Assembly: GCF_000027125.1 (NCBI RefSeq) | Contig: NC_017626.1 | Strand: one strand, 5' to 3' | DNA: 64,000 nt | DNA from: Escherichia coli 042 | Lineage (GTDB): Bacteria > Pseudomonadota > Gammaproteobacteria > Enterobacterales > Enterobacteriaceae | Part shown: piece after piece, positions 19,000 to 49,170 of the stretch | Layout: each line of letters starts with the position of its first letter | Numbering within the stretch: the first letter of the stretch is position 1 | Notes under the pieces: generated by a model | What the model was told of the DNA's origin: nothing | What the model saw: only the letters and a program-made list of their open reading frames with translations | The model's database searches: none | Position numbers and translations under genes: made by a program

Positions 19000-19254
19000 T
19001 CAATAATGATAACGACATGCTGCAATGAGCAGTGAATCGTCGGTAACCGCGTATACCAGACGGTGCTCCTCTGTAATGCGTCGGGACCAGAAGCCTGACA
19101 AATTATGCTTCAGGGGTTCTGGCTTCCCCTTACCTTCAAATGGTGTTCTGCGGGTATCTTTGATAAGTTCAATGATCTTTTTAACAATTCGCTTATCTGT
19201 TTCCTGCCAGTACAGATAATCATCCCATGACTCCTCAGACCAGATTAGTTTCAC
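19000..19254 (-). CDS. yoeB: Type II toxin YoeB (ribosome-dependent mRNA interferase), 84 aa
   Basis: Length; overlaps the yefM stop by 4 nt; position next to hisL. Confidence 0.9.
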
Positions 19255-19502
19255 TCAATAATGTCCTTTTCCGTTCCTTTGCCTGATTTCAGGCTATCGA
19301 TTGAGTCCATCAATCTCCGGGCGTTAGCGGGGGAGCGCAGTAGATAAGCCGTCTCTTCCAGCGAGTTGTATTCTTCGAGTGACATCAGAACACAAGCCTC
19401 TCCATTCTGACGAGTAATAAGGATCGGGGCATGATCTTCAACGGCTTTCATCATTGTTGCCGACAAATTCTGGCGCGCTTCGCTGTAGCTAATTGTACGC
19501 AT
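19251..19502 (-). CDS. yefM: Type II antitoxin YefM, 83 aa
   Basis: Start set at [13 protein letters not shown] with AAGAGGAG RBS; overlaps yoeB. Confidence 0.9.
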
Positions 19503-19785: not shown

Positions 19786-19836
19786 ATGACACGCGTTCAA
19801 TTTAAACACCACCATCATCACCATCATCCTGACTAG
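19786..19836 (+). CDS. hisL: his operon leader peptide, 16 aa with seven consecutive His codons
   Basis: ATG ACA CGC GTT CAA TTT AAA CAC CAC CAT CAT CAC CAT CAT CCT GAC TAG. Confidence 0.95.
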   Translation: MTRVQFKHHHHHHHPD

Positions 19837-19900
19837 TCTTTCAGGCGATGTGTGCTGGAAGACATTCAGATCTTCCAGTGGTGCATGAACGCATGAGAAA

Positions 19901-19933
19901 GCCCCCGGAAGATCACCTTCCGGGGGCTTTTTT
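19901..19933 (+). terminator. his attenuator terminator
   Basis: gcccccggaag (19901-19911) / cttccgggggc (19917-19927) stem followed by TTTTTT at 19928-19933. Confidence 0.85.
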
Positions 19934-19981
19934 ATTGCGCGGTTGATAACGGTTCAGACAGGTTTAAAGAGGAATAAGAAA

Positions 19982-24325: not shown

Positions 24326-26403
<2,078 letters not shown>

Positions 26404-26410
<7 letters not shown>

Positions 26411-27015
26411 CAGAACAACAACGTCACGAACTGGACTGGGAAAAAACCGACGGACTGATGCCGGTGATTGTACAACACGCGGTATCTGGCGAAGTGTTAA
26501 TGCTGGGCTATATGAACCCGGAAGCTCTGGACAAAACCATCGAAAGTGGCAAAGTTACCTTCTTCTCGCGCACTAAACAGCGACTGTGGACCAAAGGCGA
26601 AACGTCGGGTAATTTCCTCAACGTAGTGAGTATTGCGTCGGACTGCGACAACGACACTTTATTAGTGCTGGCGAATCCCATCGGCCCGACCTGCCACAAA
26701 GGCACCAGCAGTTGCTTCGGCAACACCGCTCACCAGTGGCTGTTCCTGTATCAACTGGAACAACTGCTCGCCGAACGTAAATCTGCCGACCCGGAAACCT
26801 CTTACACAGCCAAACTGTATGCCAGCGGCACCAAACGCATCGCGCAGAAAGTGGGCGAAGAAGGGGTGGAAACTGCGCTGGCAGCAACGGTACATGACCG
26901 CTTTGAGCTGACCAACGAGGCATCTGACTTGATGTATCACCTGCTGGTGCTGTTGCAGGATCAGGGGCTGGATTTAACGACGGTGATTGAGAACCTGCGC
27001 AAACGGCATCAGTGA
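26404..27015 (+). CDS. hisI: Bifunctional phosphoribosyl-AMP cyclohydrolase / phosphoribosyl-ATP pyrophosphatase, 203 aa
   Basis: Last gene of the operon; length; overlaps the hisF end. Confidence 0.95.
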
Positions 27016-27025
27016 GTTGCGGACT

Positions 27026-27143
27026 GACCGGATGCGATGTTGTAGTCGCATCCGTAGCCATTGCCCGATGCGCAAGCTTATCGGGCCTACTATTCGCTCT
27101 GCACATTTTGGCTGGATAAGATGCGCCAGCATCGCATCCGGCA
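27026..27143. repeat. Cluster of REP-type palindromic units downstream of hisI
   Basis: Units such as ccggatgcgat...tcgcatccg, gcccgatgcgcaagcttatcgggcctac and ggctggataagatgcgccagcatcgcatccggc match the REP consensus. Confidence 0.55.
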
Positions 27144-27184
27144 AAAAAAACGGGCAAGGTGTCACCACCCTGCCCATTTTCTTT
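27143..27184. terminator. Bidirectional terminator between hisI and wzzB
   Basis: A8 run, stem gggcaaggtg (27152-27161) / caccctgccc (27166-27175) with one mismatch, then a T-rich run. Confidence 0.6.
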
Positions 27185-27197
27185 AAAACTGCAAAGA

Positions 27198-28175
27198 TTA
27201 TTTCGCGTTGTAATTGCGTAGAGCGTTACGCCCCAGCACAATCCCCGCGCCAACCATGCCACCCAGTAGCACTGCCAGAATCAAGGTAATTGCCTTTTTC
27301 GGGCTATCGCGACGAATAGGTAACGTCGGTTTCATCACATAACGGTAAGCATGAATATCAAGATCATCAACCTTTAAGCTTTCGATATCCAGCAGGTTTT
27401 GACGAGTCTGATAGTAGTTTGGTGAGAACACCAACGGACGGGTCGCCTCATGCTTAATCATCGACTCCAGTGCTTCGCTCCCAAGAAGGAACAACGTATC
27501 TTGCGTCACATCTTCAGTCTGCTGAACCTGTGGTTTTGTCACCTGCGCCTGATTCGCATACTGCAATGCTTCCTGAATCTGACGGATACGCAGATCTTTC
27601 TGCTCCTGCGCGACCACTTCCTGCGTTCTTAAAGAGTCCTGCAAGTTTTTCCGTCCCAGAGCAATGTTGTCTTTGAGATCCTTTTCTAGCTCTTGATTCA
27701 CTTTATCGTCAACTTGCTGAATGTATTGGGCCAACTTCATTTGTGCGCCCTCTGCAGTTTGCCCAACATAAGAAACAGTCAATGGTAATTGCTGGTTCTT
27801 AACAGAAGGTTCGATGGTAAGTTTTTCTGGTTCTTCCTGATTATCCAGCGTTTCTGCTAATGCAGAGAAGGCAGAACTGAAGCGACCAATCAACGTCTCC
27901 TGCAAATCTGACACTTTCGGTGCAGCCTGACCATAGATAACATTCATGGCATTGTTATAGCCAGCGATTTGCCCCACATCAGGTTGAGTAACGATAGCTG
28001 TGGAAGTCCACTTTTCTTTGGCAACGGCCAGATACCCTATAGCCAGGGCAATAGCAACAATGACAGAGATGATGATTGTCATCTTGCCACGCCACAACTG
28101 CATTAGTAAATCAATCAAATCAATCTGTTCCGGGTCATGGTTTTGCCCAGAAACATTATTATTTTCTACTCTCAT
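27198..28175 (-). CDS. wzzB: O-antigen chain-length determinant WzzB (Cld)
   Basis: Start set at MRVENNNVSGQNHDPEQIDLIDL; N- and C-terminal membrane helices flanking a coiled-coil periplasmic domain. Confidence 0.9.
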   Translation of the reverse strand: MRVENNNVSGQNHDPEQIDLIDLLMQLWRGKMTIIISVIVAIALAIGYLAVAKEKWTSTAIVTQPDVGQIAGYNNAMNVIYGQAAPKVSDLQETLIGRFSSAFSALAETLDNQEEPEKLTIEPSVKNQQLPLTVSYVGQTAEGAQMKLAQYIQQVDDKVNQELEKDLKDNIALGRKNLQDSLRTQEVVAQEQKDLRIRQIQEALQYANQAQVTKPQVQQTEDVTQDTLFLLGSEALESMIKHEATRPLVFSPNYYQTRQNLLDIESLKVDDLDIHAYRYVMKPTLPIRRDSPKKAITLILAVLLGGMVGAGIVLGRNALRNYNAK

Positions 28176-28320
28176 CATTACCCTAACTGACGGAAATTTC
28201 CAAGTCCGCATAGTTTAGCGATAATCCTCGTGAATGCTATAGGATAAGTGATAAAAATAATGAATTATTGAGGAAGTAACAAAAGACAATCAGGGCGTAA
28301 ATAGCCCTGATAACAAGATG

Positions 28321-29496
<1,176 letters not shown>

Positions 29497-29677
29497 TCAG
29501 AATTAACTTAACTGTGAATCATGATGTTTTTAGCATCCTGATAAGAGTTAAAAGTTTTAACGCTACGTTGTAAGATGGTCAACGCAACGAAAAACAATTC
29601 AGAATTTCTTTATAAGAATAGCTGATATTTATTAAGTTAATATTAAGCAGTGAAATTTAGTCTATAAGATAATTGGC

Positions 29678-29710
29678 AAAAAAAAAGCCCGGTGCAATAT
29701 ACGCCGGGCC
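29678..29710 (-). terminator. gnd rho-independent terminator
   Basis: On the minus strand: stem gcccgg / ccgggc (29687-29692, 29704-29709) followed by a U9 run (A9 at 29678-29686 on the plus strand). Confidence 0.6.
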
Positions 29711-29736
29711 TCAATTTTATTGTTGGTTAAATCAGA

Positions 29737-31143
29737 TTAATCCAGCCATTCAGTATGGAACACACCTTCTTTATCAATGCGCTTATAAGTATGTGCACCG
29801 AAATAGTCACGCTGTGCCTGGATCAGGTTCGCAGGCAGAACAGCGGCACGGTAGCTATCGTAATAGGCAACCGCAGCGGCGAAGGTCGGAACCGGGATAC
29901 CGTTTTGTACTGCATAAGCAACGACATCACGCAGCGCCTGCTGGTAGTCATCAGCAATTTGCTTGAAGTACGGAGCCAGCAGCAGGTTAGCGATCTGCGG
30001 ATCTTCGGCATAAGCATCGGTGATTTTCTGCAGGAACTGCGCACGGATGATGCAGCCAGCACGGAAAATCTTCGCGATTTCGCCGTAGTTCAGATCCCAG
30101 TTGTACTCTTCAGACGCGGCGCGTAGCTGAGAGAAGCCCTGAGCGTAAGAAACGATTTTGCCCAGATACAGCGCACGGCGAACTTTTTCGATGAACTCAG
30201 CCTTGTCGCCTGCTGGCTGCGCTTGCGGGCCAGAGAGAACTTTAGACGCGGCAACGCGCTGATCTTTCAGAGAAGAGATATAACGTGCAAACACAGACTC
30301 GGTTATCAGCGACAGCGGTTCGCCGAGATCCAGCGCACTCTGGCTGGTCCATTTGCCCGTACCTTTGTTTGCTGCTTCATCCAGAATCACATCAACCAGG
30401 TAGTTACCGTCTTCATCTTTTTTGGTGAAGATATCTTTGGTGATGTCGATCAGGTAGCTGCTCAGTTCACCGTTATTCCACTCGGTAAAAGTCTGCGCCA
30501 GTTCTTCGTTGGTGAGGTTCAGGCCACCTTTTAGCAGAGAATAGGCTTCAGCAATCAGCTGCATATCGCCGTATTCAATACCGTTGTGAACCATCTTCAC
30601 ATAGTGACCTGCGCCATCGGCACCAATATAGGTAACGCATGGCTCACCGTCTTCAGCTACTGCGGCGATTTTGGTCAGGATCGGTGCAACCAGTTCATAG
30701 GCTTCTTTCTGCCCACCAGGCATGATGGAAGGTCCTTTCAACGCCCCCTCTTCACCGCCGGAAACACCGGTACCGATGAAGTTAAAGCCCTCTGCTGAAA
30801 GCTCACGATTACGACGAATAGTGTCCTGGAAGAAGGTGTTACCACCATCAATGATGATGTCACCTTTATCGAGATATGGTTTGAGGGAATCAATAGCAGC
30901 ATCCGTGCCTGCACCTGCTTTCACCATTAACAGGATGCGACGAGGGGTTTCAAGAGACTCGACAAACTCTTTCACCGTGTAATAAGGAACCAGTTTCTTA
31001 CCCGGGTTCTCGGCAACAACTTCTTCAGTTTTTTCGCGGGAGCGGTTGAAGACGGAGACGGTATAACCACGGCTTTCGATGTTGAGCGCCAGGTTGCGCC
31101 CCATCACTGCCATACCGACGACGCCGATCTGTTGCTTGGACAT
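29737..31143 (-). CDS. gnd: 6-phosphogluconate dehydrogenase (decarboxylating), 468 aa
   Basis: N-terminus [30 protein letters not shown]; length. Confidence 0.95.
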
Positions 31144-31295
31144 TACATACTCCTGTCAGGTGTGGTCACCGCGACATACGCGGTTATGCTTGTAAAGCAG
31201 ATAGTATCAAACAATTAGTAATCTATGTTAGAACTTACTCAAGCTAAGTGTTCATAAATAGAACAAACTAATTCTATTCAAAGAGGACTCATTGA

Positions 31296-32531
31296 TTACA
31301 TTTCGAATGTTTTTTTAGGACGCATCTTTTTTATCATAAAAAAGCTGCAGAGAAGTAATATGAAACTAATACACTCTACAAGCAGAATCGTCATAGCAGC
31401 ACCTTTAACACCGTACTTCATTATTAAGAAATACATAGTTGGTATCGATGTCAAAATGCAAACATACGAAACATACAAACCCACTTTATAAAACCCCTGT
31501 GACTGAATTATTGCAGTTGTACCACCATTGATACATTTCACACATGCAACAATCAAGAACATCATTATCAAGAAATCATTATTAACATTAGAAATCAATA
31601 CAAAATGACCCAGGTATTTTATTATAAAGAAATAAACTAATGAACTCAGCACGCCATATGCCACAATACATAACAGGAACTGAAACACCTTAGTAAAAGC
31701 ATTTTTTTCTTGTAAGTTAATTCGGCAAAATCTTGCATAGGCAACTGTAGAAAATACAGAAGAAACCATAACCAGTGGATCAACCATCCTAAATATCTGG
31801 CCATATGCTGCAAGATCCCCTGGGGCAAATGTCTTGAGATAAAAATTATCTATACGGCTATAAATAATTACAACAACAGCTGTAAGACCTATACTTAATG
31901 TATATTTATATAAAGAAAGAATTGACATTAGCACATCAAAAGCTGACGTTCTAATAAACCTAAACTTGACACTAACGAATAGTTTTAGTGTAACCAGCGA
32001 TACGAATAATAGTTCAACACACAGGTAATCCCATGCGTTAAATTTAACGTTTAAAAAATACTGAATAGCGAAGATCGTACACGTTGCAATAGATGCAATT
32101 GCGATCGGAACCGTGAGAGATTTATTGGAATTGAGAGATTGAAAATAGCTATTTGAGAAATTAAAAAATAAAGCAACAGGTAAGGCTAACACAATAGGAA
32201 TATAGACATTATATTGATAACCCTGAACAAAAGAATACAAACAAAACAGTAGTAAAACAATTACTCCAGAAAGAATTTTTTGTGCAAACGTTACATTTAA
32301 TAGTTTTATTTTATCTGTAGAATCATTATATTTTTTTATAACAAACAGATCCACACCAAAATCAGTAACCACCCGAAGGACTTCGAGAAAACCAACTAAA
32401 AAAATGAACTCTCCGCCTACATCTTCTCCTAAGGAACGAGTAATCAGAATTATTGCAAGTGTTTTAAAACCGAAGTAACATATTTTATTAAATAGCGAAA
32501 AAATGCCATCGGAGAAAATTTCTTTGATCAT
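31296..32531 (-). CDS. wzx: Candidate O-antigen flippase Wzx, 411 aa
   Basis: AT-rich multi-pass membrane protein; N-terminal pattern ...TLAIILITRSLGEDVGGEF typical of Wzx; last gene of the cluster before gnd. Confidence 0.6.
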   Translation of the reverse strand: MIKEIFSDGIFSLFNKICYFGFKTLAIILITRSLGEDVGGEFIFLVGFLEVLRVVTDFGVDLFVIKKYNDSTDKIKLLNVTFAQKILSGVIVLLLFCLYSFVQGYQYNVYIPIVLALPVALFFNFSNSYFQSLNSNKSLTVPIAIASIATCTIFAIQYFLNVKFNAWDYLCVELLFVSLVTLKLFVSVKFRFIRTSAFDVLMSILSLYKYTLSIGLTAVVVIIYSRIDNFYLKTFAPGDLAAYGQIFRMVDPLVMVSSVFSTVAYARFCRINLQEKNAFTKVFQFLLCIVAYGVLSSLVYFFIIKYLGHFVLISNVNNDFLIMMFLIVACVKCINGGTTAIIQSQGFYKVGLYVSYVCILTSIPTMYFLIMKYGVKGAAMTILLVECISFILLLCSFFMIKKMRPKKTFEM

Positions 32532-32572
32532 GTCATGCCTACTGGTGAGATCCTGGTCGAAAAATAAACCAC

Positions 32573-33904
32573 TTACTGACCATGATAAATTTTATTTTTA
32601 ACAAGTAATGGAGATATAAGAACAATCGGCAATGATTTTAGAAGAAAAGCCAATGGCAAAATCAGTTCACCACGAACAGCATAAAAAAATCCAGATATCA
32701 TGGAGATGGCAACAAAGTTTATTATTATCCGTTGATTATTTAGTCCCCATTTAATAAAAAGCATCACCCCTGATAAATACAGTAAATAAATAATCACTCC
32801 CAAGTTTAGACTCAGCAACGATGACTCTAACAATCCTGAAGATGACAACGCAATACCAGAGGATACATCACCTAAAACAATTATTGAAAAATCTTTTGCG
32901 ATTTGTTGATCATCAAGAAAACCAAGACCGCTTAGCGGTAATACTTGTGTGAATACCACAGCGGGATGAAGTTGATCCCATCCTGATGATTGCATATCAA
33001 ACAAATTCTGCATCCCCCCAAGAGTAGAGGATAGCGAATCTAAAACAATGCCAATATAAATCATAAAATCGATTTGGTACCCTTCACGGAAATACGATAC
33101 CATCGAGAAGCATAAAAAACCGGCGATGAGAAATATTGGTTTTGAGAGTTGCTTAAATAAATTTCTTACTCTATACTCATTAGAGTACATATATAGTATA
33201 AAAATACAAATCACTGAAAAGAAAAACTTATTACGTATTCCAATAGCTAAATCAGATGCAAGTAAAACAAATGCAATAACTTTAATGTAGGTCGGTGTTT
33301 TAAAATAAAAAGTGGACAATGACATTACAACTGCAAAACCACTAATAGCACGAATAAAAAATGGAACTTGGGATAGCAATTCTTCGCTTTCAGTATAAAT
33401 TGCTAAATGCCCTTCTCCTGAATTCAATATAAACATAAGATAAATTAATATTTTGTATAATTGACACAGTGCAACAATAGAAAACAAAATATAAAATAAA
33501 CTAGTTAAATATCTTTTTTCTTCTTTTATGACAGTCTCTGTTGTTTGCAAGTAAAGGATGGAATTGATCAACATCCCCCAGATACAAATTATTTCAAACC
33601 CATGATTTGCGTTTTTAAAATAGTAAAGATAAATCGATGGCAAACCAATAATCAAAGAAAAAACGAATGCAAAAAGTAAGGTTAGTGATAAATAGCGAAC
33701 TCTATTAATATAATAATAGAACATCAAAACAACTAATAGCGCTGTAGATATAGTGGCTAAAATATCAATATACACTTGCGATACAAATGTATCCGCCCCT
33801 CCCCACAAGAAACATGAGGATAGTGAAAGAAATACAGAAAAATATATAGCCAGATGTTTAAACTGTATTTTATTGCACAATAATGAATAATATTGCTTAT
33901 GCAT
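32573..33904 (-). CDS. wzy: Candidate O-antigen polymerase Wzy, 443 aa
   Basis: Very AT-rich, highly hydrophobic multi-pass protein with no soluble domains; adjacent to wzx. Confidence 0.5.
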   Translation of the reverse strand: MHKQYYSLLCNKIQFKHLAIYFSVFLSLSSCFLWGGADTFVSQVYIDILATISTALLVVLMFYYYINRVRYLSLTLLFAFVFSLIIGLPSIYLYYFKNANHGFEIICIWGMLINSILYLQTTETVIKEEKRYLTSLFYILFSIVALCQLYKILIYLMFILNSGEGHLAIYTESEELLSQVPFFIRAISGFAVVMSLSTFYFKTPTYIKVIAFVLLASDLAIGIRNKFFFSVICIFILYMYSNEYRVRNLFKQLSKPIFLIAGFLCFSMVSYFREGYQIDFMIYIGIVLDSLSSTLGGMQNLFDMQSSGWDQLHPAVVFTQVLPLSGLGFLDDQQIAKDFSIIVLGDVSSGIALSSSGLLESSLLSLNLGVIIYLLYLSGVMLFIKWGLNNQRIIINFVAISMISGFFYAVRGELILPLAFLLKSLPIVLISPLLVKNKIYHGQ

Positions 33905-34087
33905 AGTAATTAGCTTTACTAGTGAAGTAACTCATTTGAAAAATAAGAAACAGTTAATTTTACAATCTCTTATTCGGGATGAACGCAAATAAAAACACCA
34001 ATGCTAAATATAAACAATTTATAAACAATCTATTACTGAGCGGTTAAATGACAAACCGCTCAAGAGTAGAAAAAAGTTTATATTTTT

Positions 34088-35509
34088 TTACAAAAGAGTA
34101 ACTTTATGCAAAACTTCTAACACTAATTTTTCAGCTTTTATTATGTTATCTGCTTCTGCATAGCATCGCAATTCAGGTGCGTTGCCTGACGGTCGCAAAT
34201 GGATTATTGAACCATCACTTAGTGTCAATCTTAACCCGTCAATTGTATCCACCGATTGTACATGAAGATCGACAAAGCCTATTCTTTCGATAAATTCTTG
34301 AGGATTTTCTTGAGCTGACGCGATAATGCTTTTGCTTTTGCTTGTTGCAAAATTTTGAACTCTATTTGAGTAGGTAAATCGTGGTGGCAACTCCGCCAAG
34401 AGTTTTGAAATAGTCACATTATTTTTTATAGCCAGTGCCAGTACCATTAAAGCAGGCAAAACAGCATCTCTTGTTGGAAGCGCTTTAATCATACCGCTGT
34501 TATAATTTACATCGCTACCTAAAAGATACCCACCGTTAGCCTCAAACCCTGCAACCCTATCAAAACTATTATTCAGAGAATCAAACGCTGAAATGACGTA
34601 TGGTGAACCAATTTTAGTCAGCGTTACATGATTAAACCACCCGCAAGTCTGAATAACCGTATTACAACTTACAGGTACAGCTACCGCTTCAATATTCATT
34701 GCCTTTGAGCAAAATAGTCCTAATATATCACCCCGTAACCAAACGCCATTTTCGTCAGCAACCAAAGGACGATCGCCATCACCATCGGTAGAAAAAATCA
34801 TATCGAGGTCATACTCAGATGACCAGTGTAAAGCTTTTTCTTCATCTTCTTTTGATACTGCTTCAGTATCAATAGGCACAAACTCATCACTTCTACCAAT
34901 ACTTACAACTTCAGCACCAAGCTTACTGAATATTTCTGAATAAAGATCCCGTCCCGCACTTGAATGTTCATAAATCCCGATACGTTTACCTTTAAATATA
35001 TTTGAAAAAATTGAAGTGTTTCTCTCGATATAAGTATCAGCGGCACGCTTTGAACATTGTAATTCTGGCAATACAGTTACATCAGGATACTCTTTTTCAG
35101 CATGTATAATGCTGTTCTCATTTTCTTTTGAAATTTCCCCGTCTGGACGATAGAATTTCAAACCATTTCTATCAAATGGAATATGACTTCCAGTAACCAT
35201 TATTGCAGGAATCCCATCGGCAATCGCTTGATTTGCCAAAGCTGGAGTTGGAATTACACCGTAGTAAATAGGTTTAATACTACATTCCAACAATGCTGCT
35301 GCGCAAGCTTGTGCCATAGCATAGCTGCTTGGGCGATTATCTATTGCGAGCGCAACCTCTTTAAAAGAAAAATCCTTCATCATTACATCGATAAAAGCAT
35401 AAGTGAATGCAGCACACACGTTGGGTGTAAAATCTTTCACTAATCCACGAGCACCACTTGTACCAAATGCAATTCCGCTATTTTTAATTACATCATTGGT
35501 AATATTCAT
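34088..35509 (-). CDS. manB: Phosphohexomutase, ManB-like (start at M13 of the ORF preferred, 5 nt after the manC stop; the ORF could extend to 35545)
   Basis: Phosphoserine-loop motif [11 protein letters not shown] (variant of TASHNP); tightly coupled to manC; GAGGA upstream of ATG 35509. Confidence 0.65.
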
Positions 35510-35513
35510 ATAA

Positions 35514-36929
35514 TTATTTATCCTCAACACGACCATATTTATCACTTAGGCGCACAATATCATCATCACCTAGATATACACCCGACTGAATCTCAATTAC
35601 TTCTAATGGTATCTTTCCTGGATTTTCCAAGGTATGAACTGTGCCAATTGGTATGAAAGTTGACTCATTTTCAGTGACGAAAAAAGTGCGTTCGCCGCAA
35701 GTCACCTTTGCAGTACCAGCGACAACCACCCAATGCTCAGCTCGATGATGATGCATTTGTGTTGAGAGACATTCACCAGGCTTAACGGTAATACGCTTTA
35801 CCTGATAACGGTCGCCACGTTCTACAGAATCATAACGTCCCCAAGGACGATAGACTTCGCGATGGGATATATGTTCGCTACGTTTTTGCTTTTTAAGAAT
35901 TTCGACAATCTTCTTTATGTCTTGTACGTTGTCTTGCTGTGCTACCAGGAGCGCATCTTTAGTTTGAACTATAATAAGGTTATTAACTCCTACAGTGCTG
36001 ATCAGTGAACCTTCAGAGTAAATGTAGTTGTTCCTGCTGTCATAGTTAATTACATCGCCATGCGATACGTTTTCATGTTCATCTTTCTCTGATATTTCCC
36101 AAAGTGATGTCCATGAACCGATGTCACTCCAGTCAGCATCAAGTGGAATAACTACACAATCCTGAGTTTTTTCCATTACCGCATAATCAATTGACTCATC
36201 GGGACATTCTGCAAAGACATCAGAATTTAATCTGATAAAATCTAGATCAGTACTAGCACTGGAAAGCGACTCTTTACACGCTGCTAAAATATCAGGGCGA
36301 AATTTTTTCAATTCATCTAAATATACGCTCGCCTTGAACATGAACATACCACTATTCCACAAATAGCATTTTTGTTCGAGATAATTTTTAGCCGTTTCTA
36401 AATCAGGTTTTTCGACGAAAGAATTTACTTTAAATACAGAGTTTTTAACTTGTTCGCCCTTTTTAATATAGCCATACCCAGTTTCAGGTTTGGTCGGGAC
36501 GATGCCAAAAGTCACTAACTTATTGTCAACGGACTCTTGTTCTGCAGCTAAAACAGCTGCATGGAAGGCTTCAATATCCTGAATAGCATGGTCAGCAGCA
36601 AGAACCAGCATATGATGATCGCCATGGAGTTCTAGAGACTTTAGAGCAGCCAGCGCAACGGCGGGCGCAGTATTTCTACCTACAGGTTCTAGAATAATCT
36701 GGAAGTCATCCACACCGAACTGTCGCAATTGTTCAGCAACAATAAATCTATGCTCATTATTGCTAACAATGACAGGAGGCAAACAATTTAATCCATCAAG
36801 TCTCTTCAACGTTTCCTGGAGCAAACTATTTTCATTAATCAATGATAAAAATTGTTTCGGGTATAACGAACGCGAAAGAGGCCATAAGCGAGTACCAGAA
36901 CCACCGGCCATAATAATTGGGATAATCAT
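35514..36929 (-). CDS. manC: Mannose-1-phosphate guanylyltransferase / mannose-6-phosphate isomerase, 471 aa
   Basis: N-terminus [28 protein letters not shown]; C-terminal cupin region; roughly 60 percent identical by eye to the cpsB product in the same window. Confidence 0.85.
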
Positions 36930-36930
36930 T

Positions 36931-38133
36931 TTATTTAACAGACTCCTTAATTTTCTGGATATATGGGCTCAATTTAGCTTCCCATGAAAAATTCTCACCG
37001 ATAAACTTTTTCGCAACTAATGCTGTTTCGGTATATTTATCCAGATTTGTTATAAAATAATTTAATACACGTAAATATTCTTCTTTTGTATTGGCAACAT
37101 AAATCTCCTTACCCTCCTCTGCTCCCAAGCCTTCAAAGCCTACAGTAGAAGAGATACAAGGTAATCCCAACGCCATATATTCAAGTACCTTATTTTGGAT
37201 ACCTGCCCCTAATCTAATAGGACATACACCAATATGCCCATCAGCTGCTGCATAAGTTATGCTATCAACTTCACCTGTGACAACAACGCCAGGCTGGCTT
37301 TCTAACCAACTCTTATCTTTATCTGTAATACGTCCGATGACCTTAAATTCAAAATTACCATGCTTGTTAAGAAATGGTAAAACTTCCTTGGTGAACCATC
37401 TCACACCATCCATATTTTGCAAAGAATATAAATTACCTATAAATACAAGGGTTATCTTTTTATCTTTAGCTATTTTTCGTTCTGAAAAAGGTAAGCTAAC
37501 GGCATCAACACCATTTCCACAGACTAATACATTATTCGGACGGTCTGGATATAAATAATCGGAGTCAACCTGTGATACCAAAGTAGTCAAGCTGAACTTG
37601 TTATTTATAGTTCGCTCATATCGTTCGAGTCTTTTTTGTTCAAAAGAATATACAAATGTTTTTAAACTCAATAAAGATGCTTTTTCCTTTACTCGTTTAT
37701 AATTAAGTGAAATGGCATCGGTCATCTCTAAAAAATTTATATCTTTATTCTCTTTCACATAATCACCAACCCTTATCAAATGTGAAAGAGTTGCAGAATG
37801 TTCAGGTAATAACTGCTTAAGTTTATCTTCAAATTCTTTAGATTTATAATACCCAATCTGTAGGGGAGTATTTGAAAACAAAGAGAATATGACATTTAAA
37901 ATAGATTTTTTCTTTGAAAGATATACTCTGTGAACACTACTAAAAACTTCACGATCATATTCATAGTTGAGCTCTTCGCGTTTATCACACAGACTCAGCA
38001 ACGTAAGATCATAATGCTTAGACAGTTCTTTACAGATCTTATAGATACGTAATCGATCCCCACCAATGACAGGAAACGGGAACCGTGGAGTCAAAACTAA
38101 TATCTGTTTCTTATTTATATCAATATTACTCAT
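36931..38133 (-). CDS. Glycosyltransferase, GT4 (family 1) type, 400 aa
   Basis: C-terminal motif [26 protein letters not shown] (E-x7-E-like); AT-rich. Confidence 0.75.
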
Positions 38134-39163
38134 AAATCTTTCTCAATTCATTTTCAAATAAAATATGTTCATGCAGAGCTTTCCTTTCGACACTGGGTGA
38201 ATTATCTACCAAGTATGAATAGACTTCATAATACTCAGAATAGTAAGTATAAAAGAAAATATTCGAATCCTTTTGTTCGCGGAAAGCAGAGATCCGTGTG
38301 CATATAACATTTTTGCATGTGAGTTTTGCTTCAGCTAAAGTCCTTCCATACCCCTCGGCAAGCGAATGAGCCCAAACAATTTTAGAATTACAATATAGTT
38401 TGACGACTTCCTCTAAAGAAACAAAACCAATAATTTCAATTTCTTTATCTGTATCCCGCCCATCAATTAAGTCGTTAACCTTGCTAATACCATTCCCACA
38501 ACCTAATATTTTTAATGGTATTCTTTCTTCCCTTGGGATTGAAAAATAATAGTCCAGAGCTGTGCCTAGATCCTTATTATCCCCTAAACCTGAAACTAGA
38601 AGTAAATATCCAAGATCTTTTATTTCGGTAACATTAGCAATTTTCTCAAATGAGAAAAATGGATTTGGGAGCAGGATAGATTCTATACACTTAAATAGCG
38701 ATATTCTCTTAGATACTCGCTGAGTGCTTTGAGAAATAAATATTACTTTCTTTGCTAAAAAAGATGAAAAATAAATACAGACTTTCACATAAATGGCAGC
38801 AAGATTTCGTTTATTTTTCTTAAGACTAATGAAGTCATGAATTATAACAATTGCCTTACCTAATAACAAGTCAATGATGGAACTACTATTATAGGGATAT
38901 ATATTATACTTAGTTCTATAAAATATACCCATAATTGGTATTAAAAGCTGCTCTACTATTATAAAAAGAACATTCAGAAACCATGAAGGCAGCTTATGGA
39001 ATGCTTTTGGACATGCAACATAAATAACCTGAACATTATTGTCTCTTAACTTTTGCACAAGTTCAGAAGTATAGATCGGTATTCCTCTTTTCAAAATACC
39101 ATCAAAAAAATTATTTACAATTACTTTCATGTTTGCTCTTAAGTTTATTTCAGATATTATCAA
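38126..39163 (-). CDS. Glycosyltransferase, GT4-like, 345 aa; first gene of the O-antigen operon
   Basis: C-terminal SLAEGYGRTLAEAKLTCKNVI motif; overlaps the downstream glycosyltransferase by 8 nt. Confidence 0.65.
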   Translation of the reverse strand: MIISEINLRANMKVIVNNFFDGILKRGIPIYTSELVQKLRDNNVQVIYVACPKAFHKLPSWFLNVLFIIVEQLLIPIMGIFYRTKYNIYPYNSSSIIDLLLGKAIVIIHDFISLKKNKRNLAAIYVKVCIYFSSFLAKKVIFISQSTQRVSKRISLFKCIESILLPNPFFSFEKIANVTEIKDLGYLLLVSGLGDNKDLGTALDYYFSIPREERIPLKILGCGNGISKVNDLIDGRDTDKEIEIIGFVSLEEVVKLYCNSKIVWAHSLAEGYGRTLAEAKLTCKNVICTRISAFREQKDSNIFFYTYYSEYYEVYSYLVDNSPSVERKALHEHILFENELRKIYE

Positions 39164-39229
39164 TAGTATAAAAATAGTCAGGATTATTATTTCTTATTTT
39201 GAGAACGCATCATATAAACACAATCTTAC

Positions 39230-39268
39230 CACGCTACCGCCCCTGGCTTAACAGCTACCAGTGCACTA
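39230..39268 (-). promoter_or_regulatory. JUMPstart element with ops (GGCGGTAGCGTG on the transcribed strand) in the O-antigen operon leader
   Basis: Plus strand cacgctaccgcccctggcttaacagctaccagtgcacta; ops reverse complement at 39230-39241; near-identical copy upstream of wza. Confidence 0.7.
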
Positions 39269-39523
39269 GCAAAATGCCAAAGATGTACCCCGCCCCGCTA
39301 GCTATCGCAAAGCTATCTTAAATTCAAACGCCAATTGTCTTACCAAATGCTGTCAGAAACAAGGATAAATCCAACAAAAAATAGATTAAACTTAGTAGGT
39401 TAACTCGTTGTTATTCTTTGTTTTAAAAAGAAAAACGACAGTAACATTCCTTTGTTTAAAGCATAGACGCCGGGATGTTAGCTGCCGCTATTTATCTAAA
39501 TTATTGTTACATTGGCTTGGGAT

Positions 39524-40417
39524 CTATTCCCCGAGCAACTTCTCAATGCTCTTACGGAACTTTGGCCCTTCCTTCAGGTTGCGCAGTCCATACTTCACAA
39601 ACGCCTGCATATAGCCCATTTTTTTACCGCAGTCGTAGCTGTCGCCGGTCATCAGCATGGCATCAACGGACTGTTTTTTCGCCAGTTCGGCAATAGCATC
39701 AGTCAGCTGAATACGCCCCCATGCACCAGGTTGCGTGCGTTCAAGTTCCGGCCAAATATCGGCAGAAAGCACATAGCGACCAACGGCCATGATGTCTGAG
39801 TCCAGCGTCTGCGGCTGATCCGGTTTTTCGATAAATTCGACGATGCGGCTGACTTTACCTTCACGATCCAGTGGTTCTTTGGTCTGAATGACGGAGTATT
39901 CAGAGAGGTCACCCGGCATACGTTTTGCCAGCACCTGGCTGCGGCCCGTTTCGTTGAAGCGCGCAATCATGGCAGCAAGGTTATAGCGTAGCGGATCGGC
40001 GCTGGCGTCATCGATAACAACGTCTGGCAGTACCACGACAAATGGGTTGTCACCAATGGCAGGTCGTGCACATAAAATGGAGTGGCCCAAACCTAAAGGT
40101 TCGCCCTGACGCACGTTCATAATGGTCACGCCCGGCGGACAGATGGACTGCACTTCCGCCAGTAGTTGACGCTTCACGCGCTGTTCAAGGAGAGATTCTA
40201 ATTCATAAGAGGTGTCGAAGTGGTTTTCGACCGCGTTCTTGGACGCGTGAGTTACCAGGAGGATTTCTTTGATCCCTGCAGCCACAATCTCGTCAACAAT
40301 GTACTGAATCATTGGCTTGTCGACGATCGGTAGCATCTCTTTGGGAATCGCCTTAGTGGCAGGCAACATATGCATCCCAAGACCCGCTACAGGAATAACT
40401 GCTTTTAAATTCGTCAT
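39524..40417 (-). CDS. galF: UTP-glucose-1-phosphate uridylyltransferase paralogue GalF, 297 aa
   Basis: Start set at [14 protein letters not shown]; position between the O-antigen and colanic acid clusters. Confidence 0.9.
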
Positions 40418-40591
40418 TATTTCATCCACCTGTAAAATGGTTGCTGAATTATAGCTTGTTCGATTTTTTTCGCCAGCATCAATTACCCTGAATTGATTAC
40501 TGAATTACTTGTGATGTTACGCCGCTTCGTTGTGGATTGCAGTAGCATTGTTCCTAAGTATGGCTCCATTTTTCCAGGAATGGTCGCAAAT

Positions 40592-41986
40592 CTACTCTCT
40601 CCGTTCTGGCAATCTAAAGTTAATCTTTTCCACATTAACAATATGGTGATTAACCCTGTCGATATCGACGGAGCTTTGCCCTCTTTCATTCACCGCATGA
40701 ACATTTGCAAGAGACAGCAGTGTTTCTTTTTTCGCCATAAAGACGCCGCGAACGTCTTTGCGCATGTCGAAGTTCATGCTCAATGCGGGTCCAACAGAGG
40801 ATTCCTGCATCACTTTGATATTTCGTATAAAAAGATGTTGCGGTTTGTTGTGTAACTCCAACGAGGCACGCTTCATCTCAATGTTAGTCAGTGCAACAAA
40901 GGAGACAGCATTCCCGGCAGAGATTTGGATACCGCGCAATTTGTAAGCAAGGTGGGTGTTATCCAGCTGAATATTATTCACTCGGAAATTTTGCGGTATC
41001 GAGAGATATTTGCCTTTAATTACCCCATAACCGATTAACATCCCGGCGCTATTAATCATTTCAATATTATCAATCACGAAATTGTCACAACCGTAAATAG
41101 CGACCGTGGCGTTATCAATACCTGCTTTCTTACTGAAATCCGGCGTGATATTGCGGGCTTTGATATTACGAATAACAAAATGTTTACCATTTTCAACATG
41201 GATCAGTTGTCGACAATCCGATCCCGTGATATTCGCCACGACAAAGTTTTTCACTGCCTGGTCTTCCGGGTAGTTATTATCATAAGTACTCCCCGCAAGG
41301 CCTATGCCGATTCCCCAGTTGATTTTGCCGTTGGTACAGTTGATGCGCTCGATGATGTGGTCGGAGATCAAAATATCACTGTCGTTAATCGCCACGTTCC
41401 ATTCAATGGCGTCCCCCTGTAAGTCGCTGAACTTACAATTGGTGATGTTGGCACCGATAATCTGGTTATGAAATCCCTGACGTAAGATGGCGTAATTAGC
41501 GTGGCTGACAGTGAGGTTATCGATGGTCAGGTTGCGCATGACCCGTTTGTTTTTGCCGCCGATATAAATCTGCGTTACTGGGCCAAAGCCGCTCATCGCC
41601 AGCCCTTTGATGGTGCAGTCAGAGCCGCGCACATCCAGGGTGATGTTATGCATACTGCCGCCCTCCTCCCCTGTCACCTGGCTGCCGTCTTGTAAGACAA
41701 AACGCCCTCTGCCGTTGCCGCGCAGGCTTCCAAGGATGTGTAACGTTTTGCCAGGAGGAATGAAGATGCCGGTGTTGATATTTTCACAAACCAATCCGGC
41801 AGGCACGACGACCGTTTGCCCTTCGCTGAAGGCTTGTTTAAATGAAGCAATCCAGTCGTGTGGGTTGTAGTCGTTAATGTTAACGCTTTGCCGGGCAGGA
41901 AGTGCTCGGGCGAAAGGCGTATGAAGGAAGGCAAGCGCCGAGCTTACCGTCAGGAAAGTGCGTCGGGAGAGTTTTTTAAATGGCAT
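40592..41986 (-). CDS. wcaM: Colanic acid biosynthesis protein WcaM, 464 aa
   Basis: Length identical to K-12; Tat-like signal (SRRTFL); last gene of the cluster. Confidence 0.9.
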
Positions 41987-41996
41987 ACGTTCTCCT

Positions 41997-43217
41997 CTAT
42001 AAAGCTTGCAGCAAGCTGGCGAGTTCTCGATTAATCACCTGCTGGTTAAAATCATGTTCGACTTTTTCGCGCGCACGTTTGATAACCGGAGCCAGTTCGT
42101 CGGTGTCCAGTTGGCTAAACGCCGCCAGTCGTTGCGCCAGTGCACGGGCATCGTTCTCAGGCACCAGCCAGCCGGATTTGTCAGCCTCCACCAGTTCCGG
42201 TATTCCGCTATGCAGAGTAGAAACCACCGGAATGCCGACCGCCATCGCTTCCATTAGCGCCACCGGAATGCCTTCCATATCACCATCCGCACCTGTAACC
42301 GATGGCAACAGGAAGACATCCGCGTCGTCGAGCATCGCTTTCACTTCGTGGCTCGGTTTAAAGCCCGGCATCTCCACCACATCTTCCAGTTGATATTGTT
42401 CGATGAGGGTGCGCAGGCGTCGTTCCCACGGGCCAATGCCGAGGATGCGATAGCGAAATGCCACGCCCTGCTCTTTCAACTGACGGCAGGATTCGATCGC
42501 CACATGCAGGCCTTTTTTCTCGGTTAAGCGTGCGACGGAGATGATTTCCAGCGGTATTGCGGGCGCTTTCACCGGACGCGGGCTAAAACGCGTCATGTCC
42601 ACGCCCATGCGCGATACGGCAATTTTTTCCCTCGGGCAGCCCATTTTTTGCAGCCTTCCGGCCCAGAGATCGCTGATCGGTAGCATCAAATCGCCACGGC
42701 GAAACAGTTGCTGATATTCGGGGGTGTAGTGGTTGAGCACTTCCCGACTGGAGATATCAATGCCGTGGAAGATAGTAGCGATTTTGCCGCGAATGACACC
42801 CAGTTCCCGTAGTTTTGCTGCGGTTACCCCCGCCGGGCCAAAATGAGCGATGAACACATCGGCATAAAATGGTGTTGCGACCTGGCCGCAAATGGCAGAC
42901 AAAATCAGGTTCCGCGACTCGGCACCATAGCGTTTGAGGTTGAGCGCCTGCCAGGTATTTTTGCGATGAATGCCGCGTAAGGTCTGGCTGGCGCGGTGGC
43001 GCAGCTTCGCCACTTTGCCCGTAGGTTCGTCCTGTAACCAGCGGGTTCTGGCGGCAAGGTTGTATTTCGTCCATGCCGCGTGGGTGTTTTGTGTGTCGCC
43101 TTTTTGCAGCGCGACAATCTCCACCTCAAATCCCATATCAATAAACGCAGTGATTTGGTTGAGAACGAAGGTTTCCGACGACAGCGGAAATTTCAGTAAA
43201 AAGAAGCCGACCTTCAT
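41997..43217 (-). CDS. wcaL: Colanic acid glycosyltransferase WcaL, 406 aa
   Basis: Length and order as in K-12. Confidence 0.9.
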
Positions 43218-44494
43218 TTCACCTCCCCGATGCGTTCAAGCACAGATTGCACCATCTGCATTCCCGTCTGACGTTCGCGACTGACGGCTTCGTTAAGTCG
43301 CGCGTTCAGCGCCGGAAGTTGGCCTAAGGTATCCGCAACCATCGCTTGCAGGCTGCCGTCCAGTAAATGACGGATATCAATTGCCATCTCTGGCAGCCCC
43401 AGCTGCTGCATAATCCCGGCGGATTTATGTTCATAGTTGATGGCAATCGCCGGAGTGGCAAAGTTCATCGAGATAATGGCTGAGTGCAGGCGCGTACCGA
43501 CGGTGAGTTCACTGGCACCGAGAATTTTGCCCATTTCCAGATCATTGAGTTCATCCATCACTACGTGGTAACGGGCAGGATCGCAGATGTGCTGGCGCAG
43601 ATTGAGCGCCACCATGCGGTCGTCTTTGTTATAGCTGTCGATGCCCGTACAGGTGGAGAGCGCAATGACCTGATAGCCTTCGTCGAGAATGCGATTGACC
43701 ACCCCGGCAAAGGCTTTTTCATACGCTTGTTGGGTGGTGCCGAGACGTTTGTCGAACGGTGCCAGTTCGCGCAGGGTAATTGCCACCGTTTTCTGTTGTG
43801 CGGCAACGTCCAGCCAGTGTTGAACGGCATAGCTGGCGGTGAAGTCTTCTGTGTGGTGATCGACCAGCCACGCGGTATCGACGCCATGTTCAACTTTTGC
43901 AGTGGAGATATTGCTGCGTTTCATCAAATCAAGGCTGACCGATTCGCGCAGGATCAGCGCATCGCAGTGACCAAAAACGTAGTTCGCCAGTTGGTTAAAT
44001 TGCTCATCCTGGAAGGGGCCGACGCTGTGACCAATCATAAACAGCGGCTTTTTCGCCATAAATGTGCAAAGCGCATGTTCAAACTGTGGCACGCCGTAGA
44101 GATCGACAAAAAACGATCCGCCGACCTGAATAATGGCGTCGTAACCTGACAGCAGGCGCACGAAGTCAGTGAATCCCTGGGCGATGGCGATATTACGCAA
44201 CTTGCCAGTGTCGGTGACGCGTGAGAGCAATACCTGATGCTGGTAGCGGCGACGGAGGACTTTTTTAACGCGCCCGACAACGCCCGCCACGCTGTTGTGT
44301 TGTTTCATTTGCAGGAACAGTGGATCGCCCATTACCGGGCGGTTGAGCAGCCAGGAAGAACTGACCGGATAGCGGCTCATCACGTCCACTTCGGCATGTG
44401 GATTGAGGATGTTGATGGCATCAAGTAAGCCGCGCAGGATGGCGCTGTCGCCACGATTGCCGCAAGTGTGGTTGCCCAGAATAAGTAATTTCAT
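43214..44494 (-). CDS. wcaK: Colanic acid pyruvyl transferase WcaK, 426 aa
   Basis: Length and order as in K-12. Confidence 0.9.
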   Translation of the reverse strand: MKLLILGNHTCGNRGDSAILRGLLDAINILNPHAEVDVMSRYPVSSSWLLNRPVMGDPLFLQMKQHNSVAGVVGRVKKVLRRRYQHQVLLSRVTDTGKLRNIAIAQGFTDFVRLLSGYDAIIQVGGSFFVDLYGVPQFEHALCTFMAKKPLFMIGHSVGPFQDEQFNQLANYVFGHCDALILRESVSLDLMKRSNISTAKVEHGVDTAWLVDHHTEDFTASYAVQHWLDVAAQQKTVAITLRELAPFDKRLGTTQQAYEKAFAGVVNRILDEGYQVIALSTCTGIDSYNKDDRMVALNLRQHICDPARYHVVMDELNDLEMGKILGASELTVGTRLHSAIISMNFATPAIAINYEHKSAGIMQQLGLPEMAIDIRHLLDGSLQAMVADTLGQLPALNARLNEAVSRERQTGMQMVQSVLERIGEVK

Positions 44495-44555
44495 TTTTTC
44501 CTCATAAATTTGATGCCAGGTGAAGCTGCGTTTGTTTTGTTCGTTGCCGCTTTTT

Positions 44556-44742
44556 GCCTGATGCGACGCTGGCGCGTCTTATCAGGCCTACAAGACCCGA
44601 GCACAGAACCGTAGGCCGGATAAGGCGTTCACGCCGCATCCGGCATTCAGTGCCTGATGCGACGCTGACGCGTCTTATCAGGCCTACAGGTCCCGAGCAC
44701 AGAACCGTAGGACGGATAAGGCGTTTTACGCCGCATCCGGCA
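44556..44742. repeat. Tandem pair of BIME units (each a REP pair) between wcaK and wzxC
   Basis: gcctgatgcgacgctg[g/a]cgcgtcttatcaggcctaca...gtagg[c/a]cggataaggcgtt...cgccgcatccggca present twice, about 96 bp apart. Confidence 0.7.
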
Positions 44743-44769
44743 ACCATTGCCGGAACCGAAAACAACAAC

Positions 44770-49069: not shown

Positions 49070-49170
49070 ATCGTTACCCTTTTTCAGGCAATAGTTGGCC
49101 CTGACCGAAACGGCCAATTTTGTTTTTGTCGTTATTTACCGGAGAATTAATCCGGTTGATTATTCAACTG

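Follow-up and report, generated by a model that had tools for sequence, protein, structure and literature searches.

Two intergenic gaps of the Escherichia coli 042 chromosome, one between hisI and wzzB and the other between wzc and wcaA, raise the question of whether the palindromes that they contain belong to the REP (palindromic unit) family and, if they do, what such elements might contribute at these two positions. REPs are dispersed, non-coding imperfect palindromes confined to 3' untranslated regions (3' UTRs) and intercistronic gaps. Here, we describe the units found in both gaps of a 64,000-nt stretch of the chromosome (NC_017626.1, assembly GCF_000027125.1), referred to as the window, before then covering their alleles in other strains and the roles that they may have. 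Taken as a whole, both sites are very probably ordinary E. coli REP elements, which may have the roles proposed for them below, and the finding itself is real, ordinary and already known.

The window runs from an agn43/CP4-44-like island through sbcB, yeeZ, the his operon, wzzB-ugd-gnd, an O-antigen cluster of the O17/O44/O73/O77/O106 family and galF into the colanic acid cluster as far as wza, upstream of which lies a JUMPstart element (63546-63584). The first gap, of 182 nt, separates two convergent genes, namely hisI (hisIE), on the plus strand at 26404-27015 according to the RefSeq annotation of CFSAN061770, which is identical over this stretch, with its TGA stop at 27013-27015, and wzzB, on the minus strand at 27198-28211 according to the open reading frame (ORF) list and annotation, with its TAA stop at 27198-27200. 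The second (59486-59613, 128 nt) is an intercistronic gap on the minus strand, bounded by the TAA stop of wzc at 59614-59616, as placed by the annotation of homologous loci, and by the wcaA start codon at 59483-59485. By ORF list and annotation, all units in both gaps are extragenic. Small ORFs within the his gap (e.g. 27061-27186) cross the repeats and the terminator and were discarded as spurious, and sub-threshold Rfam matches in the gaps to STnc40 and to miRNA families were put down to a resemblance to hairpins or terminators. The RefSeq annotation of K-12 lists no REP features for either the hisI-wzzB or the wzc-wcaA gap, a silence that carries no weight as evidence.

Membership of the REP family was assessed with a profile (nhmmer) trained solely on four canonical units (Y, Z, Y, Z) at 44555-44743, which lie between wzxC and wcaK, correspond to REP144 wzxC/wcaK of K-12 and score 79.7 bits, above the gathering score, against the Rfam family naRNA4, the model of a REP pair. 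This third cluster of the window is not cited in the original prediction. In a scan of the whole 64 kb the training units scored at E of about 1e-10 and, besides them, the profile returned two full-length matches, at 27110-27143 (E=2.8e-5) and at 59569-59602 (E=4.1e-5), together with two weaker ones, at 59547-59566 (E=0.036, covering the first half of the model only) and at 27062-27090 (E=0.06); nothing else in the 64 kb was significant by this profile. A REP core pattern gave four matches against 0.05 expected from shuffles, well above chance, and naRNA4 matched both gaps below threshold, at 44.3 bits in the his gap and 32.3 bits between wzc and wcaA, with the Y-type half of the alignment near perfect in each. 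REP hallmark words in the window are confined to the three clusters, and the folding z-scores of the hairpins range from -3.5 to -5.8, the exception being a half unit in the wzc-wcaA gap. REP-family sequence had been predicted at 27026-27143 and 59549-59603, coordinates that bracket the units correctly by profile, core pattern and naRNA4, and the REP/BIME pattern search that had been suggested as a check finds matches at both sites, those to naRNA4 being sub-threshold.

Within the hisI-wzzB gap, which had been described as occupied by REP units together with the terminator, three hairpins can be told apart (U1, U2 and U3), and the description fits U3, fits U2 marginally and does not fit U1. 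U1 (27029-27054, plus strand) is an inverted repeat, a perfect 9-bp palindrome composed of CGGATGCGA, an 8-nt loop and TCGCATCCG, which folds at -17.4 kcal/mol (z -4.95) into a perfect 9-10-bp stem without mismatch. It is composed of a REP 'head' and the complement of that head, and resembles two joined REP heads. Its match to the REP profile is not significant (E=5.3) and a sensitive search places it once per genome, at this locus only; on these grounds U1 falls outside a strict definition of the REP. It was found in every Escherichia allele aligned (12 sequences), with 96% of cells paired and compensatory change at two pairs, and its loop is inverted in one strain. We regard this pairing as weak evidence for selection on RNA structure, because palindromes can stay complementary through conversion of one arm by the other.

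U2 (27062-27090, plus strand, in iREP orientation) is a short-centre REP, TGCCCGATGCGCAAGCTTATCGGGCCTAC, in which the CTAC foot is preserved (27087-27090). Its profile match spans model positions 2-37 and its fold is predicted at -13.5 kcal/mol; the same subtype recurs directly after yggR in K-12-type genomes, where it heads another REP cluster. A 19-nt linker (27091-27109) joins it tail to tail to U3 (27110-27143, minus strand), which is oppositely oriented and a Y-like REP of full length, reads TGCCGGATGCGATGCTGGCGCATCTTATCCAGCC on the minus strand, matches the core pattern, provides the Y-half of the 44.3-bit naRNA4 alignment, folds at -19.8 kcal/mol and has near-identical (97%) copies at unrelated loci. 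The GTAG foot of U3 has become TTTTGG in the window and reads GTAGG in NU14, FDAARGOS_1264, E1V33 and MOD1-EC7003, which comprise B2 strains and two cryptic-clade species.

The units can be compared with the E. coli REPs of types Y, Z1 and Z2 described by Gilson, by Bachellier and by Ton-Hoang 2012 (PMC3333891), with which they share a length of 29-34 nt, an extragenic location, an imperfect palindrome, multiple copies and, in U2, the GTAG/CTAC foot. Measured against a palindrome of 30-40 nt with an internal mismatch or bulge, U2, U3 and the REP after wzc all fold with internal loops, U2 being just 29 nt long. They differ from the published types in that the foot is no longer present in the window's copies of U3 and the wzc REP, U2 is of a short-centre subtype and U1 is a perfect palindrome of a single locus. 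The foot is kept at the homologous positions in NU14, FDAARGOS_1264, E1V33, MOD1-EC7003 and NT1N31, and U3 and the wzc REP are to be read as mutated members of the family.

Together, U2 and U3 are best called a single atypical BIME, and one that looks to be decaying. In common with BIMEs (PMC3333891), the two units alternate in orientation, are separated by a short linker and vary in copy number between strains; set beside BIME-2 and atypical BIMEs, they stand tail to tail across a 17-19-nt linker comparable to the 19-nt linkers of the 44.5-kb cluster and are polymorphic for presence and absence, but they exist as a single copy and their types are not those of the Y/Z2 pair. The doublet is not a BIME-1, because its 19-nt linker has no IHF consensus (WATCARNNNNTTR as a regular expression, searched on both strands), which is absent from all three gaps, so that the IHF-bearing L linker of BIME-1 is lacking; unlike a typical BIME-2, it shows no tandem amplification.

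U3 abuts a bidirectional intrinsic terminator (27143-27184), which consists of A8, the hairpin GGGCAAGGTG-TCAC-CACCCTGCCC (27152-27175, with a 10-bp stem) and then AUUUUCUUU, and which would end the his operon on the plus strand and wzzB on the minus strand. It has the features by which bidirectional terminators are recognized, namely a GC-rich hairpin with an A-tract upstream and a U-tract downstream between convergent genes, folds on both strands (RNAfold, -15.6 kcal/mol on the plus and -26.3 kcal/mol on the minus strand) and is conserved in 12 of the 12 Escherichia sequences. A terminator scanner called it on the minus strand only, since the plus-strand stem contains an A.C mismatch that is a G.U pair on the minus strand. 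Its K-12 counterpart, at 2097269-2097303, is bidirectional terminator no. 173 in a table reused in the supplement of bioRxiv 10.64898/2026.03.23.713779, where it is detected during log as well as stationary phase, with the his genes, wzzB and ugd given as the genes affected and no REP overlapping it. The K-12 hairpin, GGGCAAGGUGUCACCACCCUGCCC, is identical to that of the window and has the same A-tract, U-tract and convergent genes; K-12 differs in one flank base (CCCA versus CCCU) and in having, upstream, a U1-like hairpin only. That the REP units share the gap with a bidirectional terminator, as had been proposed, is borne out by the folds on both strands and by the listing of the K-12 hairpin as bidirectional. 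Because the terminator separates the REPs from wzzB, they belong to the 3' UTR of his, and wzzB transcription reaches them by read-through only. The proposal that the clusters mark operon-internal processing or stability points is consequently right in position for wzc-wcaA, inside the wza-wzb-wzc-wcaA... operon, but not for the hisI cluster, which lies where the his operon ends.

In the wzc-wcaA gap, where a further pair of REPs had been claimed, REP sequence is indeed present, but as one intact unit and one truncated half and not as an intact pair. The intact unit is a full Y-like REP (59570-59603, minus strand; TGTCGGATGCGATGCTGACGCATCTTATCCGACC on the mRNA strand), with no mismatch to the core pattern, a naRNA4 match of 32.3 bits, 97% copies at other loci and a fold of -19.4 kcal/mol (z -5.8). 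Its CTAC foot has changed to CTCC, and the unit is absent from K-12. No U-tract follows it, and for this reason it is not a canonical intrinsic terminator. The half-REP beside it (59547-59568, plus strand; TTGCCGGATGCGGCGTGAACGG) matches model positions 1-21 only, folds weakly (-7.6 kcal/mol, z -1.97) and is the distal half, in mRNA order (59568-59547), of a Z-type unit, of which it appears to be a remnant and which is intact in K-12 and in a longer allele. By sequence criteria, then, U3 and the wzc REP are members of the family, U2 and the half unit are marginal and U1 falls outside it, and by copy number the picture is similar, with U3 and the wzc REP present in 97% copies elsewhere, the U2 subtype recurring after yggR and U1 confined to its locus.

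Alignment of alleles separates three forms of the wzc-wcaA gap. Besides that of the window there is a long form (e.g. NT1N31), in which the Y-like REP is joined by an extra half unit and an intact Z unit, and a K-12 form, shared with O157:H7, in which a 92-nt gap holds an intact Z-type unit only, starting about 28 nt from the wzc stop. The form in the window looks like the long form minus 49 nt between two repeats that end in ACGCCGCATCCGGCAA, and the half-REP would on this account be a deletion scar. Very rough allele shares, taken from evenly spaced rows, are about one-sixth for the window form, about one-quarter for the long form and about one-half for the K-12 form. The comparison with K-12 by which the clusters were to have been confirmed accordingly yields no match, the 95-nt his gap of K-12 consisting of one U1-like hairpin and then the terminator and its wzc-wcaA gap holding a different, single REP; the K-12 reference is unfit to predict the REP content of other E. 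coli strains.

What these elements do, as distinct from their sequence identity, hairpin potential, terminator, polymorphism and publication history, we infer from REPs studied at other loci. The REP325 element in yjdM-yjdN is both a partial Rho-dependent terminator and an mRNA stabilizer, and those of malE-malF and hisJ-hisQ are classic REP stabilizers. In each, as in wzc-wcaA, the REP occupies the 3' UTR or intercistronic site of a tandem pair, an arrangement in which an upstream bias of expression is expected; REP325 differs in having twelve units to the one and a half of wzc-wcaA. The wider literature (including bioRxiv 10.64898/2026.03.23.713779) describes RNA hairpins formed by REPs as obstacles to 3' exonucleases and as attenuators of transcription, partly via Rho, with expression biased upstream in tandem pairs and elevated in convergent pairs, and with wide context dependence and no general effect on half-life.

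At the his site, the plus-strand transcript would cross U1, U2 and U3 before reaching the shared bidirectional terminator, and the wzzB transcript would meet the terminator first and normally never reach the REPs. The hairpins may be extra barriers to 3'-to-5' exonucleases and may also reinforce a terminator that is less strong for his transcripts, and by analogy with published REPs a role as 3' exonuclease barrier and terminator backstop is the most likely one. The net effect at this site is probably small, because most E. coli, K-12 included, have neither U2 nor U3.

In the wzc-wcaA gap, the REP may partly stop or stall transcription and protect the upstream wza-wzb-wzc RNA, and would in this way tilt expression towards the export genes within the RfaH/JUMPstart-controlled colanic acid operon. 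Most likely it acts like the stem-loop transcriptional attenuator reported immediately after wzc in the colanic acid operon (PMC2516531), a similar post-wzc feature having been described in Klebsiella cps clusters (PMC3438125). The two resemble each other in having a hairpin at the same position of an RfaH/JUMPstart-controlled operon. They differ in that the published attenuator is described as a stem-loop and not explicitly as a REP, and in that the hairpin of the window has no U-tract and varies between E. coli alleles. That about four-fifths of E. coli are without U2-U3 and about half have a different REP at wzc-wcaA argues that any effects of the units are dispensable.

It is conceivable, though unlikely, that the stop-proximal hairpins, in a rival or additional role, chiefly affect translation, by stalling the ribosome, with ensuing mRNA cleavage and tmRNA action and a lower output of HisI and Wzc in carriers. 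According to PMC12306157, which summarizes Liang, Rudd and Deutscher 2015, terminating ribosomes stall where a REP lies within 15 nt of the stop codon, and cleavage of the mRNA and action of tmRNA follow; both sites fall inside that distance, the U1 stem beginning 13 nt downstream of the hisI TGA and the stem of the wzc REP 11 nt after the TAA. The alleles also differ in this respect, with K-12 lacking the stop-proximal REP of wzc and its remaining REP lying about 28 nt from the stop codon. U1, however, is not a canonical REP, and neither hisI nor wzc is mentioned in those RepRanger supplements that are searchable, and we continue to favour roles for the hairpins in transcript protection and attenuation of transcription.

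A different view of these sites, and a distinctly unlikely one as an account of their main significance, is that they matter chiefly as DNA, as recombination junctions at which lineages more readily swap the O-antigen region, which was proposed by Iguchi et al. 2011. These authors described REP-containing indels in hisI-wzz, wcaA-wzc and wcaK-wzxC (PMC3158064), that is, the same gaps with the same strain-to-strain REP indels as found here; their comparison was of O157 strains, and the window carries an O17/O44/O73/O77/O106-family cluster. REPs that they report in some strains in yeeZ-hisL and cpsG-cpsB (PMC3158064) are absent from the window as judged by REP hallmark words. In their data similarity junctions are located at the REP indels of hisI-wzz and wcaK-wzxC (PMC3158064), and the window is a mosaic when set against CFSAN061770, one of its breakpoints (about 45,052) being some 300 nt away from the REPs of wcaK-wzxC. 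In the same comparison, however, the hisI-wzzB REP gap lies within a 15-kb near-identical block (25,555-40,790) and the other breakpoints (at about 25.5, 40.8 and 42.8 kb) fall inside genes, away from REPs, leaving a single breakpoint of the four close to REPs in this one pairwise comparison; few such cases were found by the authors of the proposal themselves (PMC3158064). Preferring the reading of ordinary REPs acting at the RNA level, we note that the original prediction was right to call the clusters ordinary for E. coli, in that the same gaps have been published (PMC3158064), variation of BIMEs between strains is textbook knowledge (PMC3333891) and three REP clusters in 64 kb approximate the genome-wide density of 355 annotated REP elements per 4.64 Mb given in PMC4550694.

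The his gap exists in a long and a short form, and the 86-nt block by which K-12 is shorter takes in U2, the linker, most of U3 and the sequence that flanks U1 on its 3' side. Two plus-strand direct repeats of TCGCATCCG, at 27046-27054 and 27132-27140, with a spacing of 86 nt, enclose the block, which would have been gained or lost between them, most simply through deletion by slippage or recombination. Coverage thresholds lump the alleles together, and their proportions were taken from an insert-specific query and from rough counts of evenly spaced rows; the query is covered to at least 80% in 1,163 of 5,426 complete E. coli genomes (about one-fifth), and the share of roughly one-quarter among evenly spaced rows of another search agrees with this. 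Carriers of the long allele include the B2 strains NU14, UTI89, Nissle and E2348/69 as well as Escherichia sp. E1V33 and MOD1-EC7003, and carriers of the short allele include K-12, O157:H7, E. whittamii and others, both alleles occurring in cryptic Escherichia clades. Closely similar U1 haplotypes are found in both forms, with 11PC long and KE47 short. We infer that the U2-U3 doublet may have arisen once and then been deleted recurrently at the direct repeats, a direction made less certain by recombination at this hot spot and by an outgroup scan by terminator pattern that yielded five Escherichia loci and none from E. albertii, E. fergusonii or Salmonella.

The reverse history, in which U2-U3 is a recently inserted and still mobile REPIN/BIME doublet, moved by the REP-associated transposase, with the long allele derived and the K-12 state ancestral, is very doubtful. 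Such a history would suit a discrete 86-nt block of two inverted REPs that is present or absent between strains, the more so as BIME copy number varies by strain and BIMEs are cut and recombined by TnpA-REP in vitro (PMC3333891). TnpA-REP, however, requires GTAG for binding and cleavage (PMC3333891), and U3 has lost this motif in the present strain; the doublet as a whole is not repeated in the genome, as a REPIN would be, with full-coverage matches at the his locus only (near 2 Mb). Homologous long alleles are moreover shared by phylogroup B2 and two cryptic Escherichia species, the flanking direct repeats of 9-10 nt are reduced to one copy in the short alleles, and the occurrence of short and long alleles with the same U1 variants (11PC versus KE47) fits the recurrent deletion that we prefer.

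That the hairpins are chance palindromes or just parts of the terminator region, outside the REP family, is scarcely credible, for although U1 alone is a non-significant match (E=5.3) with a single copy per genome, and a Stern-type 37-nt REP consensus matched nothing in the window at up to three mismatches, that consensus overlooked the canonical 44.5-kb units as well and is itself at fault, and the independent profile and naRNA4 both match U3 and the wzc REP, and U2 less strongly, with core-pattern matches far above the shuffled expectation and near-identical copies at unrelated loci. For U1 it stays correct that it is no dispersed repeat; for U2, U3 and the wzc unit this explanation is refuted.

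The significance of the REP assignment is small, in that the annotation of two gaps is tidied and existing knowledge stands unchallenged. A more far-reaching idea, to which we give little credence, is that gain and loss, from strain to strain, of REP hairpins no more than 15 nt from the hisI and wzc stop codons and in the cps operon constitutes a heritable expression dial, the three wzc-wcaA and two his alleles setting the translation of HisI and Wzc and the ratio of wza-wzb-wzc to downstream cps transcripts. If true, this would tie REP indels to differences in capsule or colanic acid phenotype around the O-antigen recombination hot spot. The same two his and three wzc-wcaA alleles form a natural allelic series for ideas on REPs as tunable regulators in 3' UTRs.

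Relative to Escherichia coli CFSAN061770, with which a single pairwise comparison was made, the window is a mosaic. The two are near-identical across 25,555-40,790, a stretch running through hisF-hisI-wzzB-ugd-gnd, the O-antigen genes and galF, and again across wcaK at 42,808-45,051, with 2-4% divergence in hisG-hisA, in wcaM/wcaL and in all sequence from wzxC onward; the wzc-wcaA gap of CFSAN061770 is of the K-12 type. The O-antigen gene cluster itself (window 30500-39000) is 100% identical to that of strains annotated with wzx and wzy of the O17/O44/O73/O77/O106 family, an example being O17_K12a.

At the left end, positions 1-9990 are occupied by a CP4-44-like island carrying agn43 (Ag43), yeeS, antirestriction and DUF932 genes, which is multi-copy, with a median of 5 places per genome; on the corresponding side CFSAN061770 has a pdu (propanediol) operon in place of the agn43 island. 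Two small ORFs lie back-to-back on the minus strand of the yeeZ-hisL interval, at approximately 19000-19500, and from their sequence look like a candidate yefM-yoeB antitoxin-toxin pair. The segment of approximately 440 nt that holds this putative pair is missing in CFSAN061770.

A third REP cluster, fully canonical and absent from the note, is located within the colanic acid operon, in the wzxC-wcaK gap (44555-44743). Its units are ordered Y-Z-Y-Z with 19-nt linkers, it is scored by the Rfam naRNA4 model, which describes a REP pair, at 79.7 bits against a gathering score of 59.5, and its K-12 counterpart is REP144. Additional Rfam matches in the window, each exceeding its own gathering score, comprise the STnc240 sRNA (16998-17072, minus strand), the His leader (19812-19935, plus strand), an algC RNA motif between cpsB and cpsG (49074-49123, minus strand) and two minus-strand JUMPstart elements, one upstream of the O-antigen operon (39230-39268) and the other upstream of the colanic acid operon (63546-63584).

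At the 3' end of wzc, the last codons, which encode …KSDAK*, share the 11 nt TCGCATCCGAC (59619-59629) with the head of the adjacent REP (59592-59602). These copies form a direct repeat with a 27-nt spacing that straddles the border between coding and non-coding DNA, and could serve as microhomology for gain or loss of the REP.

The hisI-wzzB gap also varies in other strains. In E. coli SCPM-O-B-8794 (locus L014), the loop of U1, the first hairpin of the gap, reads CAACAACA, the exact reverse complement of the usual TGTTGTTG, on an unchanged stem; an inverted loop of this kind is characteristic of template switching inside a palindrome. In NCTC10973 (locus L010, 1667-3164), hisI ends in TAA, not TGA, and the DNA immediately after it is replaced by pieces of transposase genes from the IS200/IS605 and IS3 families, with no REPs, terminator or wzzB beyond. 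The wild boar isolate J31 (locus L009, 560-920) carries a divergent (81%) long allele, the form with the U2-U3 block, and an additional 13-nt insertion after U1. The 3' end of its hisI is truncated and pseudogenised, and the sequence ahead of it is unrelated, pointing to a possible rearrangement upstream of the gap.
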